Part shown: one piece after another, positions 3,637 to 27,462 of the stretch
Position numbering within the stretch: position 1 is the first letter of the stretch
Layout of the letters: each line of letters begins with the position of its first letter
Assembly (NCBI GenBank): GCA_020631155.1
Contig: JAHDHV010000016.1
Span: forward strand, 1 to 34,170
Reading direction: 5' to 3'
Length of the DNA stretch: 34,170 nt
Origin: Bacteroidota bacterium
GTDB lineage: Bacteria; Bacteroidota; Bacteroidia; Chitinophagales; UBA2359
Translations under genes and position numbers: made by a program
The notes under the pieces: generated by a model
Databases searched by the model: none
The model's input: only the letters and a program-made list of their open reading frames with translations
What the model was told of the DNA's origin: nothing

Positions 3637-4194
3637 ATGCTTTACAAATTAACACTCAAAAACACCGATAAAAAGCTCATTGTCTCAGACAAGGTCTATG
3701 AAGCTTTAGCACGAAATGAATATTTTCAAAGTATTCAATTACTCAAGAATTTGCGGATTCACTCCTATGGTTATGCCTTCTTCCAGAAAAATTTTGCCAA
3801 GCCCGAAGGCGGCTATAAAAACATAACGATTTATATACATCGTTATGTGGCAGAAAACTTTGTAGAAAAACCGCAAAGCAATAAACGACTCCTCGTTAGT
3901 TTTCGTAACGGCAACCGCCTAGACTGTAGAGAAGAAAACATCATCTGGGTCACCGCCTCGCAATTGGTTCGCAATACCGAAGGCATCATCAGCAACAGCA
4001 CCGGCTATCGCGGCGTTACAAAGGTAAATAATAAATACCGAGCAGCCATTTTTAGGGGCAAAACTCGCTACGATCTTGGTGATTTTACCAGCCCCGAAGA
4101 AGCTGCACGAGCCTATAACCGCAAGTCTATCGAATGGTTTGGCGTGACTAAAAGCTTAAACAAAATTCCGGGCGAGGACATCCAAGTTCGTTGA
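3637..4194 (+). CDS. HNH endonuclease (HNH_3-like) fused to an AP2/ERF-type DNA-binding domain; homing-endonuclease-like
   Basis: HNH_3-like segment IHRYVAENF...FRNGNRLDCREENIIWV; AP2 signature YRGVTKVNNKYRAAIFRGKTRYDLGDFTSPEEAARAYNRKSIEWFG; local GC clearly above window average. Confidence 0.75.
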   Translation: MLYKLTLKNTDKKLIVSDKVYEALARNEYFQSIQLLKNLRIHSYGYAFFQKNFAKPEGGYKNITIYIHRYVAENFVEKPQSNKRLLVSFRNGNRLDCREENIIWVTASQLVRNTEGIISNSTGYRGVTKVNNKYRAAIFRGKTRYDLGDFTSPEEAARAYNRKSIEWFGVTKSLNKIPGEDIQVR

Positions 4195-6856: not shown

Positions 6857-6876
6857 TTTAATTATGAATTTATTTA

Positions 6877-6940
6877 ATTACGAATTACGAATTACGAATT
6901 ACGAATTACGAATTAGAAATTACGAATTAGAAATTACGAA
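6877..6940. repeat. Tandem 9-bp repeat (ATTACGAAT / ATTAGAAAT) x7
   Basis: Direct reading; same unit recurs at 27430-27462. Confidence 0.85.
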
Positions 6941-6995
6941 TTGTTGAATTATTATTTAGTCAACTGACCATTAATAATTCAACAATTCATTTTTT
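6941..6995 (+). terminator. Hairpin TTGTTGAATTATTA-loop17-TAATAATTCAACAA followed by TTCATTTTTT; likely ribBA terminator
   Basis: 14-bp perfect inverted repeat plus T-run. Confidence 0.55.
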
Positions 6996-7034
6996 ATGAG
7001 AAAAAAATATTTTTTATTTTATTTGTTATTAACT

Positions 7035-8165
7035 ATGGAAAAGGCATTTAAAAGTATTCGCATCCAAAATTTTAAGTCTATTAAAGACATAGAACTCAAT
7101 TGCAGCCGCATTAATTTATTTATTGGCAAGCCAAATGTGGGCAAATCCAATATTTTAGAGGCACTGTCTTTATTTGCCGCGCCTTTTAGTCAAGATGAAA
7201 AATATCTATCCGAATTTATTCGCTATCGAAATTTTAGCAATCTTTTTTATGATGATAATATTCGAGAACCCATTTTAATCACTTCTAATCTTGGGAATGG
7301 GCATTTGTTTTATGATAGAGAAAGATGGGCTTTCGGTCTGGTAATGAGTGATAAAAGTGTAAATTCAAATAAGTTGAATGTTTTAAATGTTGATTTAGTA
7401 AGTGACTATCTTGATAGCTTAGTAATTAAAAATACTTTAATCAGTGCTTTTCCTTCAAAAAATAAAGATGCTCATGGTGAGCATATAAGATTTAGTTTTT
7501 TCCAAAGTATTGATAGAGCTGGCTATAGAGGTAGGAGTGATAGAAACTATAAGTTTAAGTTGGAATACACATCAACTCTAAAAAAATACACCTTTAAAGA
7601 AGGAATAAATATCAGTTCACAAGGGGATTACAGCCTTTATCCTCCATTTGGAGATAATTTATTTTTAGTAGTACAAACAAATCCTGAGTTGAGGAGGGAA
7701 ATAGCTGATTTTTTTGAAGAATATAATATGGATTTTATATTAGATATAAAAAATAATGAATTTGAGGTGCAAAAAAAGGTAGATGGCATTGTTTATAAAA
7801 GACCTTACCAACTAATTGCAGATACTTTAAAGCGCATTATTTTTCATTATGCAGCCATTTATTCCAATAAAGATTCGATTTTATTATTTGAAGAACCAGA
7901 AAATCACTCTTTTCCGCCTTATGTGCGAGAGTTAGCCCATAAAATTGTGGATGATGAAAGCAATCAATTTTTTATTACCACACATAGTCCCTATTTATTT
8001 AATACCATTATCGAAAATGCATCAAGAGAAGATGTTTCTGTTTTTATCACTAACTTTGAGCAACATCAAACAAAGGTCAAGCAATTAACAGAGGATGAAA
8101 TTGCCGAACTATCTGATCATGGGGCAGATATTTTTTTCAATTTAAATTGGTTTGAAAATGAGTAA
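7035..8165 (+). CDS. ABC-type (AAA_21/AAA_15-like) ATPase, defense-associated type; module 1 ATPase. The ORF track start 6996 is less likely than MEKAFKSIRIQNFKSI at 7035
   Basis: Walker A IGKPNVGKSNILEAL; Walker B/D-loop ILLFEEPENHSFP; H-loop FITTHSPYLF; N-terminus typical of OLD/AbiL/PARIS-class ATPases. Confidence 0.75.
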   Translation: MEKAFKSIRIQNFKSIKDIELNCSRINLFIGKPNVGKSNILEALSLFAAPFSQDEKYLSEFIRYRNFSNLFYDDNIREPILITSNLGNGHLFYDRERWAFGLVMSDKSVNSNKLNVLNVDLVSDYLDSLVIKNTLISAFPSKNKDAHGEHIRFSFFQSIDRAGYRGRSDRNYKFKLEYTSTLKKYTFKEGINISSQGDYSLYPPFGDNLFLVVQTNPELRREIADFFEEYNMDFILDIKNNEFEVQKKVDGIVYKRPYQLIADTLKRIIFHYAAIYSNKDSILLFEEPENHSFPPYVRELAHKIVDDESNQFFITTHSPYLFNTIIENASREDVSVFITNFEQHQTKVKQLTEDEIAELSDHGADIFFNLNWFENE

Positions 8166-8649
8166 AGAGCGACACCCAAATATTCTTCCTGAATGTTATG
8201 CGGATACTTTGCTAGTGCATTTACTCGGTTTCAAATATCCCAATCATTGCCCTAGTATTGGTGCGGTAGCAAATACGATGAAAAAACAAAGCCTCGCTAT
8301 TGGAGTGATAGATCGAGATAAAAGGCAGCCCAAATATTTTAGTGAGTTTGATTTATTGGAAGAAAAACACGATTTGCAACTCAAAAAGCACCCTAACAAG
8401 CGACATTATTTGATTGTAGTTTCTCCTGCTTTTGAAAAATGGATATTTAAGGCAGCAGATTCTGTTGATGTCAAACCTGAAAAATATGGTTTTAAAACTT
8501 GGAAACGCTTTAAAAATATTTCTAAAAGTAGAACTGTAGATAGAAATCAGGATTTTAAGCAATTCATCAATGCCATCAAGCAAAAAAAATCACCACCTAC
8601 AGAGCAGATGATTGAGTGGATTCAGGATATTTTAGATAAAAACCTTTGA
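8158..8649 (+). CDS. Small (163 aa) partner protein of module 1 ATPase; possible minimal Toprim/RloB-like effector (DxD in LAIGVIDRDKRQ). Start overlaps the ATPase stop (ATGAGTAA); an alternative ATG lies at 8152
   Basis: Translationally coupled overlap with upstream ATPase; basic protein; DxD motif; no confident family assignment. Confidence 0.45.
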   Translation: MSKERHPNILPECYADTLLVHLLGFKYPNHCPSIGAVANTMKKQSLAIGVIDRDKRQPKYFSEFDLLEEKHDLQLKKHPNKRHYLIVVSPAFEKWIFKAADSVDVKPEKYGFKTWKRFKNISKSRTVDRNQDFKQFINAIKQKKSPPTEQMIEWIQDILDKNL

Positions 8650-8813: not shown

Positions 8814-8892
8814 AATTAGTGCTTGGCACTTATTTCCTATTTTTGTTATTGATTAAGGTAGGGAGCAATTATTTTGTATAAAAAAAAGAAAA

Positions 8893-10185
8893 ATGAAAAG
8901 TTTTCGCATTAAAAATATAAAAGCTTTTAAGGATTCGGGGAAGATTGAAATAAAGCCGATTACTTTATTTTATGGCAAAAATAATACGGGAAAAAGCAGT
9001 TTAATTCGCTTTCCATTGGTATTAAAACAAACGATGCAGCGACCCTATGCCCCATTGATGTTTACAGGCATCCCCGAACGCCCTGATAATGTAGATTATG
9101 GCACTTATAAAGAAGTTGTGTTTAATAATGATGAAAGCAAACATATTGAGTTTGAATTGGAAGTGGATTATAGAAAAAATACCTTAAATTATTTAGTAAA
9201 TATTCAAAGAAAAAATGGACAACTTGAAGTGTTCTCTTATAAGGATAGGTATGAATCGTTGGAAGTAGAAGACGGTCAGTATATCTTCAGTGATTCACAA
9301 CTAACAAAGGAAGCAGTAGAAGTAGATTTTGATGGTTTTTTTCCAAAAGCGAGTCATTTTATTAATAAGCCAAAAACAGAAGATGGAAGGTTACTAGCTC
9401 GTCGTCATTCTTATCTAACTGACTTCTTCAATCAAATTTCTTACCTATCCACTTATCGTCCTAAACCAAAACGGCAATATCGTTTTAGTGATGTGGATTT
9501 CTCTAAATCGGGGGCAGAAGGCATTTATTGGGCAGAAATTTTGGGTTTTTATCATGAACAAAAAAATACCGCTTTTTTTGATGTACTTAATGATTGGTTA
9601 GTAAAAAATACAGGTTTAAGACTGTTGATTAAGGATTTGGGAAGTGTTTTTGAGATTATGGTAGAAAATATAAACACCAAACGAACAGATAATGTGGTAG
9701 ATATAGGCTCAGGATGGCAATTTCTACTACCTATTTTAATACAAACATTTGTTCATATTGAAAAAAAATCAGCTTCACCTTTTATTAAAATCATAGAAGA
9801 ACCAGAAATGCATCTGCATAGTTCGGTGCAAACAGCGGTTGCCGATTTATTTATTTGGGCAACACAAACGAATCCGCAAAATCGCTTTATGATAGAAACC
9901 CATAGTGAAAGTATTCTCTTGCGAACAGTTCGCAGGGTTATGGAATGGCTACAAACAAAAGGGGAAAAAGGCATTAATCCTGATGATGTAATTGTTTATT
10001 TTATTGAAAAAAGTGCCAATGAAGAAGAAGGTTCGAAGGTTACCCCTTTTAAAATTAATGAGAAAGGAATTTTGAAAAGTACTTTAGATGGTAGCATTAT
10101 GGATGAATCATTTTTTGACACTGATTTTGAGGAAGTAGTTGCCATTAACAAATTGCATGTATCACAGGCCGCGAAAAGTCAATAA
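8893..10185 (+). CDS. ABC-type ATPase (AAA_15/AAA_21-like, possibly with DUF3696-like C-terminus); module 2 ATPase, AriA/OLD-ATPase-like
   Basis: Walker A LFYGKNNTGKSSLIRF; signature-like IGSGWQFLLPIL; Walker B IKIIEEPEMHLH; H-loop MIETHSESILL; N-terminus MKSFRIKNIKAFKD. Confidence 0.75.
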   Translation: MKSFRIKNIKAFKDSGKIEIKPITLFYGKNNTGKSSLIRFPLVLKQTMQRPYAPLMFTGIPERPDNVDYGTYKEVVFNNDESKHIEFELEVDYRKNTLNYLVNIQRKNGQLEVFSYKDRYESLEVEDGQYIFSDSQLTKEAVEVDFDGFFPKASHFINKPKTEDGRLLARRHSYLTDFFNQISYLSTYRPKPKRQYRFSDVDFSKSGAEGIYWAEILGFYHEQKNTAFFDVLNDWLVKNTGLRLLIKDLGSVFEIMVENINTKRTDNVVDIGSGWQFLLPILIQTFVHIEKKSASPFIKIIEEPEMHLHSSVQTAVADLFIWATQTNPQNRFMIETHSESILLRTVRRVMEWLQTKGEKGINPDDVIVYFIEKSANEEEGSKVTPFKINEKGILKSTLDGSIMDESFFDTDFEEVVAINKLHVSQAAKSQ

Positions 10186-10188
10186 ACT

Positions 10189-11349
10189 ATGAATATTTGT
10201 ATTTCAGAAAATTTATGGAGGGCGGCTTTAACGGAAGAAGATACTTGCACTGTCATTGAAGAATTGCTACTTACTGTAAGAGCAAAAAAGCATAAGTTGT
10301 ATTTTGACTGGGACGAAGCTGTGCCTATTACAGAGTTGTTACAAAGTGATTTATTTGGTTTTTATAATCGAAGAATACTTAAAAAAAGCTATGAAAGATC
10401 ACGAACAGCTTTTCATTCCCTCGAAAAATATGTCTTAATCGTTCCTAAATCCTATATTGAGCAATGCAAAACGCAAGAGAATGTTAGGGCTTATTTTCAA
10501 GATCAAAAAGCAGTTAAAAGCAGCCCTGAACAAACGATTGAATTTATTGCTATTGAAGCTTGTCAACATTATTTATGCAGCCCTTTGATGATTATGGTGG
10601 AGGATGAAGAAAGTGATAAACTTTTTCTCAGTAGCATTTATCCTATTGTTATTCAATCAGTTAGCAATTTAGAAAATGCCAAATCCTTTGAAGAATTGAT
10701 TAAAGAACAGGAAATAGAGGTACTACATGGTGGAGGTACAGGTGTAACACAACGATTGAAGAATATCAAGTATCCTAGACGTGTTTTTTGCCTAATTGAT
10801 AGCGATAAATTATTTGAAAATGATGAAGGAACGGACGATACTAGAAAAAAACAAAGAGAAATCAACAATATTTGTAATCGAAAAGGCTTTGTTTTACATA
10901 TTCTCCACAACCGAATGATTGAAAATTACTTACCTGATAAAGCAATAAAAGAGTGGAGTAAAAAACAATCTCCTGTTATTCGACAAAACATAGCTAATCA
11001 CCCCTATTTTCAGCTAACAAGTACACAAAAAGCATTTTTTGATTGTAAAAAAGGTTTACTGCTCAAAGATTTTCAATATCCCGAAATTCAACAATCGTAT
11101 CTTGTACAATATCAACAAATACAACAAAATTCAGAACAATTTGATGCACTAAATAAGTTGATTCAAAACCAAGCTACAAAAGAAGATGGTAGCATTTTAA
11201 AAGTGAAAATTATTCAGGGCTTGAATCGGGAAATTTACAAAGCATTTAACGAAATCAAAAAAACTGAAAACCAAATCACCTCTGACAGTTTTGGAACGCA
11301 CCTCCAAGAATTAAAAGACATTTGCATAGCCATTCAAAGGCAGTTATAA
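10189..11349 (+). CDS. Module 2 partner (386 aa): putative Toprim-like (DUF4435/OLD-nuclease-like) effector
   Basis: Candidate Toprim elements MIMVEDEESDKLF (Glu), HGGGTG, FCLIDSDKLF (DxD); starts 4 nt after the ATPase stop; assignment by motif only. Confidence 0.45.
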   Translation: MNICISENLWRAALTEEDTCTVIEELLLTVRAKKHKLYFDWDEAVPITELLQSDLFGFYNRRILKKSYERSRTAFHSLEKYVLIVPKSYIEQCKTQENVRAYFQDQKAVKSSPEQTIEFIAIEACQHYLCSPLMIMVEDEESDKLFLSSIYPIVIQSVSNLENAKSFEELIKEQEIEVLHGGGTGVTQRLKNIKYPRRVFCLIDSDKLFENDEGTDDTRKKQREINNICNRKGFVLHILHNRMIENYLPDKAIKEWSKKQSPVIRQNIANHPYFQLTSTQKAFFDCKKGLLLKDFQYPEIQQSYLVQYQQIQQNSEQFDALNKLIQNQATKEDGSILKVKIIQGLNREIYKAFNEIKKTENQITSDSFGTHLQELKDICIAIQRQL

Positions 11350-20787: not shown

Positions 20788-21525
20788 ATGATAGAACTCT
20801 TAAATGAATCCTTATCCTCTGCAAATATTTTACTGACGTTCTTATTGATTGTCATGCTAATATACTGGTTTTTTGTTATATTAGGTGCAATTGATATGGA
20901 ATTTTTTGATTTCGATTTAGACCTAGAGGCGGATATGGATGTTGACGTAGATGTGGATGTAGATGTAGATGTGGACGCAGATATGGATGTGGACGCAGAT
21001 GCTGATGCAGATACGGCGAGTACTGCTAGTGGAGGCCCCGGAATTTTTGTGTCTATCCTACAATTTTTCAATGTGGGTTCTATCCCATTTATGATGTTCC
21101 TCAGTACATTAGTCCTTTGCATGTGGGTCATTTCTATCCTCACCAATTATTACATTATCCCAAATAAAACTTTTGCACTTGGATTATTGTTTATGATTCC
21201 AAATTTATTTATCAGTCTATTTATCAATAAAATAATCACTACACCACTTGTTTACATATTTAAAAACTTGGATGTTGCTCATAAAGATATGGACTTAATT
21301 GGTCATCTGTGTACATTAACTTTAGCCCTGAAAGGGGGACAACTAGGGCAGGCAGAAATTATTGCAAACAAAGGCGATCATTTGAGCATTACAGTTAGAG
21401 CAGCTAAAAATGCTTCATTTAAAAAAGGAGATAAAGCAGTGATTTTGGATAAAAATGAAGAAAGAGGATACTATGTGATTGGACAAATAGATGAAGATTT
21501 AGAAGCTTTTGAATTTAAGAACTAA
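20788..21525 (+). CDS. NfeD-like membrane protein (short YuaF-type homolog with C-terminal OB-fold), with internal (DV/DA)n repeat
   Basis: N-terminal TM segments; C-terminal GQAEIIANKGDHLSITVRAAKNASFKKGDKAVILDKNEERGYYVIGQ resembles the NfeD OB-fold; sits immediately upstream of the flotillin gene, as in yuaF-floT operons. Confidence 0.6.
   Translation: MIELLNESLSSANILLTFLLIVMLIYWFFVILGAIDMEFFDFDLDLEADMDVDVDVDVDVDVDADMDVDADADADTASTASGGPGIFVSILQFFNVGSIPFMMFLSTLVLCMWVISILTNYYIIPNKTFALGLLFMIPNLFISLFINKIITTPLVYIFKNLDVAHKDMDLIGHLCTLTLALKGGQLGQAEIIANKGDHLSITVRAAKNASFKKGDKAVILDKNEERGYYVIGQIDEDLEAFEFKN
20929..21013 (+). repeat. In-frame hexanucleotide microsatellite (GATGTG/GATGCA)n encoding DMDVDVDVDVDVDVDADMDVDADADAD
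   Basis: Direct reading inside the NfeD-like CDS. Confidence 0.7.
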
Positions 21526-21742: not shown

Positions 21743-24061
21743 ATGATATTATTAAGTATTTTAGGGGCTCTAGGCGTTGCTGGCCTAGTCATTGTTGCCA
21801 TCATTTTAATGGGTATTATTGCCTTTATTGCCTCTTTTTATAGAAAAATTCCACAAGGTTCTGCCCTAGTTCGCACAGGTGCAGGCGGTACAAAAATTGG
21901 TTTTGACAGTGGAATGGTCGTTTTGCCTGTCCTTCACTTAGCCGAAATAATGGATATTGCGGTTAAAAAAGTGGAAATTGAACGTATGGGCAAAGACGGT
22001 TTGATTTGTAAAGACAATTTACGTGCAGACATCAAAGTAGTGTTTTTTGTTCGGGTAAATAAATCGGTGGAAGGTGTAGAGCGAGTAGCGCAAACCATTG
22101 GTTGTGCGCGTGCTTCAAGCATCGATACCTTGGTTACCTTATTTGAAGCGAAGTTTTCAGAAGCTCTAAAAACGGTTGGTAAACGCTTCGATTTTGTAGA
22201 CCTCTATGATTCGCGTGAAGCTTTTAAGCAAGAAATTATCAACGCAATTGGTACAGACCTAAATGGTTATGTATTAGATGATTGCGCTATTGATTATTTA
22301 GAGCAAACGCCTATCGAACATCTTAAAGAAAGCAATATTTTAGATGTAGAAGGTATCAAAAAAATCACTGAATTAACTGCTAGAGAAAAAATTAAAGCAA
22401 ATTTAATTCGTAGAGAGGAAGAAAAAACCATCAAAAAACAGGATGTTGAAGCCAAAGAAGCCATTTTGGAACTAGAGCGTCAATTGGCGGAAAAGGAAGA
22501 AATTCAAAGGCGAGAAATTGCCATTATTAAGGCAAGGGAAAGTGCAGAAACTCTGCGTGTGCAAGAGGAAGAACGCCTGAAAGCCGAGCGAGCAAGAATT
22601 ACAACAGAAGAAGAACTGCAAGTAGCCGAAGAAAATAAATTGCGACAAATTATTGTTGCTCAAAAAAATAAGGAGCGAACAGAAGCCATTGAAACAGAAA
22701 AAGTACATAAGGATAAGCAGTTGGAAGTGACAGAGCGAGAGAAAATTGTGGCTTTGGCGCAAATAGAAAAGGAAAAAGTGGTAGAGGAGGAGCGCAAAAA
22801 CATTCAGGATGTGATTAGAGAGCGCGTGATGGTAGAAAAAGCAGTGGTAGAGGAGGAAGAAAAAATCAAAGATACCAAAGCATTTGCCGAAGCAGAAAGA
22901 AATAAATCGGTTGCGATTACGGTTGCTGAACAGCAAGCAGAAGAAGCATTGGTGAAGCAATTGAAGGAAGCAGAAGCACAAAAATTGTCGGCAGAATGGA
23001 AAGCACAACAGCGATTAATTGATGCCGAAGCAGAAAAAAATGCATCAGCAAAAGAAGCAGAAGCCAAGAAAATTATGGCGGAAGCAATTGCAGCAGAGGA
23101 AGCAGCACTTGGGGTATCGGAAGCGCAAGTAATGGAAGCAAAAGCAATAGCCGTTGAGCGTCAAGGAGTTGTAGAAGCAAATATCATTACCAAAAAAGCA
23201 GAAGCGGAGGCAAAAGCAATTGCATTGAAAGCGGAGGCAGCCAAAAAGCGCGGTTTGGTAGAGGCAAATATAATGCAAGAAAAAGGTTTGGCAGAGGCAA
23301 GGGTTATCGAAGAAAAAGCCTTTGCAGAAGCCAAAGGTTTAGAGGAGCGCGGTGTGGCAGAAGCGAAAGTTTTGGAGCAGGCAGCATTAGCAGAGGCCAA
23401 AGGTATTGAAGAAAAAGGCAGCGCGGAAGCGAAAATTTTGGAGCAGGCAGCATTGGCAGAAGCCAAAGGCATTGCAGAAAAAGGCAGCGCAGAAGCAAAA
23501 ATTTTAGAAGAAGCAGCACTTGCAGAAGCCAAAGGTATTGAGCAGAAGGCAGAGGCGATGAAAAAATTGGATGGTGTAGGTAAAGAGCATGAGGAGTTCA
23601 AACTCAGATTGGAGAAGGAAAAAGCCATCGAATTGGCAGCCATCAAGATTCAGGAAGCCATTGCCGAGTCACAAGCTAAAGCCATTGCCGAAGCACTCAA
23701 ATCTGCAAATATCGACATTGTGGGTGGTGAAACGATGTTCTTTGAGAATATTGTAGAAGCTATTACAAGAGGTAAAACGATTGACAGAACGATTGATAAT
23801 AGCCAAAATTTGACGGCTTTGAAACATGGACTTTTAGGCAATACTGCGAATGGCGGCGGCAATGTGATGGATAAAATCAAAGGCTTTGTCAAGCAGTTCA
23901 ACTTAGATACAGAGGACATTAAAAACTTGTCCCTCACTGCTTTAATGGTGAAAATGATTGCAATGAGCAGCAATAGCAATGACAAAAGTATCTTAGGCGA
24001 ATTGCTTAATGTAGCCAAAGGAGTAGGCATCGCCAATAAAAAAGTAGATAGCTTGTTTTAA
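21743..24061 (+). CDS. Flotillin-family (SPFH/band 7) protein, unusually long (772 aa) with an extended Ala/Glu-rich coiled-coil repeat region
   Basis: N-terminal TM + SPFH domain (IPQGSALVRTGAGGTKIGFDSGMVVLPVLHLAEIMDI...); repeated AEAKGIEEKGSAEAKILEQAALAEAKGI units. Confidence 0.85.
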   Translation: MILLSILGALGVAGLVIVAIILMGIIAFIASFYRKIPQGSALVRTGAGGTKIGFDSGMVVLPVLHLAEIMDIAVKKVEIERMGKDGLICKDNLRADIKVVFFVRVNKSVEGVERVAQTIGCARASSIDTLVTLFEAKFSEALKTVGKRFDFVDLYDSREAFKQEIINAIGTDLNGYVLDDCAIDYLEQTPIEHLKESNILDVEGIKKITELTAREKIKANLIRREEEKTIKKQDVEAKEAILELERQLAEKEEIQRREIAIIKARESAETLRVQEEERLKAERARITTEEELQVAEENKLRQIIVAQKNKERTEAIETEKVHKDKQLEVTEREKIVALAQIEKEKVVEEERKNIQDVIRERVMVEKAVVEEEEKIKDTKAFAEAERNKSVAITVAEQQAEEALVKQLKEAEAQKLSAEWKAQQRLIDAEAEKNASAKEAEAKKIMAEAIAAEEAALGVSEAQVMEAKAIAVERQGVVEANIITKKAEAEAKAIALKAEAAKKRGLVEANIMQEKGLAEARVIEEKAFAEAKGLEERGVAEAKVLEQAALAEAKGIEEKGSAEAKILEQAALAEAKGIAEKGSAEAKILEEAALAEAKGIEQKAEAMKKLDGVGKEHEEFKLRLEKEKAIELAAIKIQEAIAESQAKAIAEALKSANIDIVGGETMFFENIVEAITRGKTIDRTIDNSQNLTALKHGLLGNTANGGGNVMDKIKGFVKQFNLDTEDIKNLSLTALMVKMIAMSSNSNDKSILGELLNVAKGVGIANKKVDSLF

Positions 24062-27429: not shown

Positions 27430-27462
27430 TTTAATTACGAATTAGAAATTACGAATTATGAA
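27430..27462. repeat. 9-bp ATTACGAAT / ATTAGAAAT repeats (same family as 6877-6940)
   Basis: Direct reading. Confidence 0.75.

Follow-up and report, generated by a model that had tools for sequence, protein, structure and literature searches.

What kind of system is encoded by an ATPase gene whose stop codon overlaps the start of a very small partner gene? Such a pair lies on contig JAHDHV010000016.1 from a Bacteroidota bacterium (assembly GCA_020631155.1), and we analysed the 34,170-nucleotide (nt) stretch that contains it, hereafter the window. A preliminary description, made from the sequence alone, had called it the least classifiable gene pair in the window. We found it easier to place than that, since ATPases paired with a small Toprim-like protein have been described before (PMC10440598, PMC12065111, PMC11464382). 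With moderate confidence, we read the pair as an OLD-like module of a translationally coupled ABC ATPase with a Toprim nuclease, in which a sensor ATPase would control a nuclease effector in the manner of toxin-antitoxin or abortive-infection systems. A defence role is what we infer for it. The pair is not a new kind of system, and its architecture will not surprise a specialist.

Both open reading frames (ORFs) reported earlier, one for an ATPase of 376 amino acids (aa) and one for a basic partner of 163 aa, are present. Their homologues in other genomes were found at E = 1e-50 to 1e-105 (phmmer) for the ATPase and 1e-11 to 1e-62 for the partner, so both are real genes and not chance ORFs. 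The partner has an isoelectric point (pI) of 9.56, with 30 Lys and Arg against 20 Asp and Glu, and the ATPase is acidic (pI 5.43). The ATPase frame is open from 6996 and ends with TAA at 8163-8165. Because MEKAFKSIRIQNFKS, which begins at the ATG at 7035, aligns with the N-termini of 37 orthologues, we placed the start there and not at 6996. The overlap of the partner start codon with the ATPase stop codon was read directly in the sequence as the 8-nt ATGAGTAA.

The two genes were found together wherever they could be compared. Loci with upstream DNA were collected from six homologue look-ups and 38 species-representative genomes (47 modules), to which a provirus and three modules from other phyla or domains were added (51 modules). 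An orthologue of the window ATPase lay directly upstream of the partner in 51/51, which bears out the coupling to AAA_21 ATPases across genomes that had been proposed. Junctions were measured in the 47 modules. The genes overlapped in 46, by 4 nt (ATGA) in 24, by 8 nt in 14 (the window included), by 14-29 nt in seven and by 1 nt in one; the remaining module had a 3-nt spacer. Similarity to the window pair co-varied between ATPase and partner (Spearman rho 0.77, n=35). As judged from these sequences, ATPase and partner form an obligate, co-evolving, translationally coupled unit.

The ATPase scored above the gathering threshold with Pfam AAA_15 (65.7 bits, cut-off 32.1) and AAA_21 (56.4 bits, cut-off 27). 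Its top PADLOC match was AbiLi (1.3e-22), where residues 5-362 aligned with positions 2-335 of the 340 in the profile, followed by the ATPase-Toprim, GajA, AriA, Old and NsnB models; the AriA models were matched at 8e-18 and 1.3e-17. A profile built from 38 orthologues was compared with PDB and matched RecF, the retron Eco8 OLD nuclease, PtuA, Rad50, GajA, OLD and, weakly, AriA. Since the Walker A, Walker B and H-loop motifs are invariant (Table 1), the ATPase probably binds and hydrolyses ATP.

The partner belongs to a large family. A word-indexed search gave 12 relatives, and a HMMER scan with their profile returned 1,269 cluster representatives (50% identity) at E ≤ 1e-3, 703 of them at E ≤ 1e-10. 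Among 150 members listed of the 1,269, nearly all are stand-alone proteins of about 130-195 aa; for the family as a whole the length is put at about 145-195 aa. None of the members examined carried a Pfam annotation or an informative name. A match of the partner to a housekeeping family, the outcome that the preliminary description had singled out as speaking against its view, was not observed. The weak profile links that do appear, all of them hmmscan matches of individual members, point to Toprim-type proteins. The partner itself reached 13.5 bits with DUF4276 (PF14103; E 0.089), below the gathering threshold of 30.2, and 14.2 bits with MAD4 (E 0.035), below the equivalog cut-off of 160; RloB (PF13707) was not matched by the window partner in the Pfam scan. 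Among the 150 members, MAD4 was matched by 19 (best E 9e-6) and any other NCBIfam model by at most four. In Pfam, DUF4276 was matched by 2/150 (reaching E 1e-3) and RloB by 1/150 (4.7e-4), and in PADLOC mad4 was matched by 3/150 and AbiLii by 3/150, the latter at about 0.01. Published work places DUF4276 and RloB in the Toprim superfamily and pairs MAD4, RloB and AbiLii with AAA_15/21 ATPases (PMC12065111, PMC11464382, PMC10440598).

We determined residue conservation in 320 family members from several phyla and two domains, using window numbering. Besides the residues in Table 1, H30 (94%), G49 (96%) and P90 (95%) are strongly conserved. The single DxD pointed out earlier in GVIDRDKRQ is D52/D54 and is the most conserved feature of the family. 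The earlier remark on a His- and Cys-containing N-terminus holds for C13 and H30; C32, in HCPS, is not conserved. In the Toprim motif EGxxD/E the residue after the catalytic Glu is usually Gly, and the partner has Cys there. K123 is replaced by Asn in the archaeal-virus branch.

An AlphaFold2 model of the partner, made with 150 sequences, was of very high confidence, with a predicted local distance difference test score (pLDDT) of 96.4 and a predicted template modelling score (pTM) of 0.90. In it, residues ~9-90 make up an alpha/beta core, and helices fill the tail (~92-162). E12 stands just past strand 9-11 and D52xD54 at the end of strand 46-52, and so the model has the Glu after the first strand and the DxD after a later core strand that characterise Toprim. 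E93 opens the helix after the last core strand (82-88), and K123 lies in the C-terminal helical region. The best structural matches of the model were OLD nucleases, and it appears most like their catalytic C-terminal region.

The active site of the OLD nuclease of B. pseudomallei (Bp OLD) is formed by E400, E404 at i+4, D455xD457, T506/E508 where the helical domain begins and, inside that domain, K562; its C-terminal region of ~205 aa is able to cleave DNA when the ATPase domain is missing (PMC6755086). E12/D16/D52xD54/E93/K123 of the partner follow the same order and spacing as E400/E404/D455xD457/E508/K562, and the E12-D16 spacing is that of E400/E404. The near-invariant residues of the partner would be those expected of a two-metal Toprim active site; K123 as a candidate counterpart of K562 is the weakest of these assignments. 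Of the three possibilities offered earlier, a minimal Toprim, a non-nuclease effector or an adaptor, the first is favoured by the Glu and DxD arrangement, the OLD-like acidic residues and the weak profile links. The partner had also been called unusually small. It is small beside AriB and AbiLii, but not beside the DUF4276 profile (192 positions), MAD4 (206) or the Bp OLD C-terminal region.

Table 1. Positions of the gene pair and of its conserved motifs, counted from the first nucleotide of the window
Feature	Position	Strand	Basis or conservation
ABC-type (OLD/RecF/Rad50-like) ATPase, 376 aa	7035..8165	+	Pfam and PADLOC matches; orthologue alignment
Walker A (P-loop) GKPNVGKSN, residues 31-39	7125..7151	+	G31, P33, N34, G36, K37, S38, N39 invariant in 38 orthologues
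Walker B ILLFEEPE, residues 282-289	7878..7901	+	E286, E287, P288, E289 invariant in 38 orthologues
H-loop TTHSP, residues 315-319	7977..7991	+	T316, H317, P319 invariant in 38 orthologues
Junction ATGAGTAA	8158..8165	+	8-nt overlap of partner start codon and ATPase stop codon; direct sequence reading
Small stand-alone partner, 163 aa, putative minimal OLD-type Toprim-like	8158..8649	+	ATG at 8158, stop codon 8647-8649
P-E12-C13-Y-A-D16 (putative Toprim Glu and acidic residue at i+4)	8188..8205	+	E12 98%, C13 94%, D16 96%
D52-R-D54 (putative Toprim DxD), end of strand 46-52	8311..8319	+	D52 100%, D54 99%; strand from model
E93 in P-A-F-E-K-W (candidate metal-B ligand like Bp OLD E508)	8434..8436	+	E93 95%, rest Asp
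K123 in helical tail (candidate counterpart of Bp OLD catalytic Lys K562)	8524..8526	+	85% conserved

The reading as a sensor ATPase with a nuclease effector implies a sequence of events that is modelled on relatives. AAA ATPases neutralise Toprim_OLD/RloB-like toxins (PMC10440598), and AriB is sequestered by AriA (PMC11464382, PMC13064643). In the window pair, both proteins would be co-produced and would form a complex, in which an acidic ATPase oligomer would keep the basic nuclease inactive and be both its antitoxin and the sensor. The ATPase would respond to a trigger, for which a phage protein or stress linked to infection is the most plausible candidate, by an ATP-dependent conformational change. 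This change would release or activate the nuclease, which would cut nucleic acid by metal-dependent (two-metal) hydrolysis and bring about cell arrest. The candidate substrates are tRNA or other RNA, as for AriB, and DNA, as for OLD and GajA. One point counted for a defence role is that the window pair stands beside a second ATPase module, which matches PDC-M55A/B.

Several results weigh against this reading. The partner gave no match above threshold in the Pfam, NCBIfam, PADLOC or PHROGs models. Foldseek with the partner model found nothing in PDB or BFVD, and hhalign of the partner family profile with P2 Old gave no meaningful similarity. PDB sequence searches with partner profiles returned chance-level matches only (WbpB, PCNA, CopM). 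We infer the residue equivalence with the Bp OLD active site from order and spacing. A pattern scan of IMG/VR gave no close relatives. Finally, the immediate neighbours at 40 other loci are mostly housekeeping genes (nuoF/nuoG, carB, xseA, ffh) and not defence genes.

The distribution of the module bears on how it is maintained. Among the genomes sampled it occurs mostly in Bacteroidota, and further members come from Planctomycetes, KSB1, archaea and a provirus of an archaeon. This provirus is Geoglobus ahangari pleomorphic virus 1 (BK065157.1; locus L050:3977-5418; loci are referred to by L numbers), in which the module is gp15-gp16. Across 99% of its length gp15 shares 38% identity with the window ATPase; for gp16, hhalign with the partner profile gave a probability of 99.5% (E 3.7e-23). 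The provirus is pleolipovirus-like and its host is a hyperthermophilic archaeon; there the module is flanked by winged helix-turn-helix regulators, with a RelE/ParE toxin gene nearby. Three more modules were found, one on a contig from Planctomycetes, one in a bacterium of KSB1 and one in an archaeon of Methanomassiliicoccales. These groups, together with Spirosomataceae, hold the close relatives of the provirus module. The provirus copy and its relatives indicate transfer between domains.

Some loci hold unusual copies. One Saprospiraceae metagenome-assembled genome has two tandem copies (L019:1434-4495). The ATPase is split by a frameshift or stop in L002:4906-6004 (= L028), L031:2674-4001 and L036:2988-4491, and in L036 the partner is split as well. 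These split ATPase loci, at least three, suggest occasional decay of the module. The intact partner behind a broken ATPase in L002 would be unexpected for a strongly toxic free nuclease. On plasmids, tblastn with the partner found nothing. With the ATPase it gave one match, a 158-aa C-terminal remnant on a Parabacteroides distasonis plasmid (NZ_OY725749.1, L049:4043-4519), which is annotated as an AAA family ATPase, has 40.6% identity and has no partner gene.

In two groups of Bacteroidota the cassette sits at a recurrent place among core genes. In 11 loci nuoG is immediately downstream, its start overlapping the 3' end of the partner by 7-13 nt, and in 8/11 nuoF is immediately upstream. These loci (L007:3989-5528, L035, L037, L038, L040 and L042-L047) come from at least 11 species representatives, with Chitinophagaceae, Puia, Ferruginibacter, Flavihumibacter and others as hosts. 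The cassette there lies inside the complex I (NADH dehydrogenase) operon, an odd and apparently long-lived site for a putative defence or toxin-antitoxin module. In a Saprospiraceae/Lewinellaceae clade, carB (carbamoyl-phosphate synthase large subunit) is directly upstream in 7-8 loci (L004:4069-5516, L018, L021, L023, L026, L027, L036 and L048). Other neighbours are xseA, ffh, yicC and gldM. Conflict-related neighbours are occasional and include TIR_2 and DUF433/DUF5615 (L002), Uma2 (L001), AbiEii (L054) and RelE (the provirus). A third small ORF follows the cassette in L004 and L005 (166 aa in L004) and possibly in L002 and L003 (176-197 aa); that of L004 overlaps the partner's stop and had no Pfam or PHROGs match.

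Positions vary between clades, even among relatives of 50-60% identity. Three points were counted for mobility: the varied neighbourhoods among close relatives, the provirus copy and a G+C content lower than that of the flanking core genes. No convincing direct repeats or target-site duplications were found flanking the modules. The picture is that of a mobile cassette which is able to persist long once inserted, and a toxin-antitoxin-like property would explain its persistence among core genes.

Such persistence raises the alternative of a purely selfish addiction cassette, in which the ATPase would merely neutralise a toxic nuclease and have no anti-phage or trigger-sensing role, and which would owe its retention to post-segregational killing or to its being impossible to lose. 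Pairs of an AAA ATPase with Toprim_OLD/RloB behaved as toxin-antitoxin systems in E. coli, where one of the AAA-neutralised pairs did not protect against phage (PMC10440598). The solitary position of the cassette among core genes, not in defence islands, and the tight translational coupling, which sets stoichiometry, are consistent with this view. However, the full catalytic machinery of the ABC ATPase is invariant, which is more than passive neutralisation needs. In addition, the characterised relatives (PARIS, AbiL, OLD and Gabija) are phage-triggered and the window copy adjoins another candidate defence module. We consider this alternative unlikely.

A domesticated housekeeping role, in which the targets of the pair would be host nucleic acids (nicking or repair of DNA, processing of the chromosome or of RNA), is slightly less probable still. 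The stable positions across genera (nuoF-nuoG, after carB, and near xseA, ffh, yicC and gldM) suggest long vertical retention, and neither protein has lost its catalytic motifs in these clades. Cran1, a member of the OLD family that acts in the archaeal cell cycle, shows that such proteins can be essential without having a part in defence (PMC12796447). The ATPase profile also matches RecF (1.4e-8), and the pair of RecF, an ABC ATPase, with RecR, a Toprim protein, is a looser precedent. This match, however, is limited to the N-terminal P-loop region common to all these ATPases, and a toxin-antitoxin-like cassette would likewise stay at fixed sites. The distribution is patchy across domains and phyla, positions differ among clades, and the provirus copy, the tandem copies and the broken ATPase genes all speak against a housekeeping function.

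Domestication could also be confined to a part of the family. The partners would then form a distinct, ancient and minimal OLD-type Toprim lineage with a modified active site (the Cys by the catalytic Glu and the His), spread across Bacteria, Archaea and an archaeal virus, and in some Bacteroidota the module, in the nuo operon or behind carB, would process host nucleic acid or operon mRNA and not act against phages. We regard this as quite improbable. The least probable view of all is that the partner lacks catalytic activity and serves the ATPase as an adaptor or as a regulator that binds DNA, with a degenerate Toprim- or Rossmann-like scaffold. Against it stands the near-invariance of the putative metal ligands (five acidic residues at Toprim/OLD-type positions, 95-100% conserved in the 320 sequences, as is typical of metal-binding active sites and not of scaffolds), even though Foldseek finds no Toprim, no curated Toprim profile was matched, the protein is basic, and RecR is a Toprim protein that is not known to have nuclease activity. 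A sensor ATPase that restrains a Toprim nuclease is the reading we retain.

In the window, the pair is flanked by ribBA and, after a 243-nt gap, by the second ATPase module (8893-11349), which is followed by a NUDIX gene. The second module encodes a 430-aa AAA_15/21 ATPase and a 386-aa partner, and matches PDC-M55A (2.7e-65) and PDC-M55B (3.7e-21) in PADLOC. Its partner contains a hydrophobic-IDSDK stretch reminiscent of the Toprim DxD. Apart from this short hydrophobic-IDxDK stretch, hhalign found no meaningful similarity between the module-2 partner and the partner family. We rejected the idea that both modules make up one four-gene system, as no module-2 homologue occurs in loci L001-L050; because none of the other loci examined contains module 2, the two are independent. 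Both have a G+C content of 0.30-0.35, against 0.43 for ribBA.

The 178-nt gap upstream of the ATPase lacks a Bacteroidetes-type -7 motif (TAnnTTTG); module 2 has one such motif 48 nt upstream of it (8838-8845). The gap that separates ribBA from the ATPase contains a tandem heptamer array, AATTACG repeated 9.6 times and degenerating to AATTAGA (6876-6942), of which a shorter, intergenic copy occurs at 27433-27460. Right after the array and 40 nt before the ATPase start lies an inverted repeat (6931-6995) with 24-nt arms, 88% complementary, and a 17-nt loop, which could be the ribBA terminator or a regulatory hairpin. Elsewhere in the window, an HNH_3 endonuclease ORF (3637-4194) lies in a low-G+C stretch, and the ORFs at 20788-21525 (245 aa) and 21743-24061 (772 aa) had no Pfam match at E ≤ 1e-3.

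The analysis leaves the general picture of OLD-like systems unchanged. Through it a large unannotated protein family (~1,270 clusters when grouped at 50% identity) gains a name and a testable active site, and the known split ATPase and Toprim pairs are joined by one with a minimal effector of about 150-190 aa. So small a partner would suit biochemical and structural studies of the way in which an ABC ATPase holds back a Toprim nuclease. The unexpectedly stable placement in core operons (nuoF-nuoG and after carB) may reflect retention for addiction, for defence or for some function of the host.

By its sequence, the pair has the same predicted architecture as PARIS AriA/AriB, AbiLi/AbiLii, MAD3/MAD4 and the AAA-ATPase:Toprim toxin-antitoxin pairs. 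With AbiL, an abortive infection system of Lactococcus plasmids, it shares the gene order of ATPase and then effector, and AbiLi is the best match of the window ATPase. AbiLii is an OLD-type Toprim/RloB-like effector (PMC10440598, PMC13064643). The window partner, however, had no AbiLii match at E ≤ 1 in PADLOC, was judged in the preliminary description to be about half the size of AbiLii, and belongs to a family whose hosts are Bacteroidota and others, not Firmicutes plasmids; the pair is not AbiL. PARIS, with AriA and the DUF4435 protein AriB ('Class 4 OLD'), likewise has its ATPase and Toprim nuclease on adjacent genes and supplied the mechanistic model adopted here. In contrast to AriB, the window partner matched neither AriB in PADLOC nor DUF4435 in Pfam and is without the extra regions of AriB (163 aa against ~35 kDa). 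The window ATPase is also ~90 aa shorter than AriA (376 against 464 aa), and the pair falls outside PARIS.

OLD proper (P2 Old, Ts OLD, Bp OLD and GajA) shares with the window pair the ATPase superfamily and the spacing of the putative ligands and Lys, and gave the best structural matches. There, however, ATPase and Toprim are fused in one polypeptide, whereas the window domains are on separate genes. The window partner also differs in the Cys after the Glu and the conserved H30, and no sequence similarity to P2 Old was detected. Gabija (Class 2 OLD) adds a UvrD helicase gene, whereas the next gene after the window pair encodes an unrelated ATPase (PDC-M55A), which separates the pair from Gabija.

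MAD3 and MAD4 of the methylation-associated defence system (MADS) also combine an ABC ATPase with a small (~200 aa) stand-alone Toprim-like protein. MAD4 is a DUF4276 protein, and DUF4276 has been placed in the Toprim superfamily (PMC12065111). The window ATPase matched MAD3 (NF047734/NF047739 set) at 6e-8 and 32.2 bits, far below the equivalog cut-off of 420. Next to the window pair we identified no methyltransferase and no other MADS genes, and the module is a self-contained pair. The NetFlax pairs of an AAA-ATPase (D29) with Toprim_OLD or RloB-like proteins (D44, D60) are also small two-gene operons, in which the ATPase neutralises a Toprim-type toxin, as validated by toxicity-neutralisation assays (PMC10440598). 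Their sequence families differ from that of the window pair, whose family gave a weak RloB match in one of 150 members. By threshold or context, the window pair thus stands outside each of the named families PARIS, AbiL, MADS, RloB, DUF4276 and Gabija. Its partner family, which has no annotation in public profile libraries, we regard as new in sequence, while the kind to which it belongs, that of an ABC ATPase with a stand-alone Toprim-type effector, is known; it is set apart by its minimal size, the Cys that follows the putative catalytic Glu, the conserved H30 and the unusual genomic placement.

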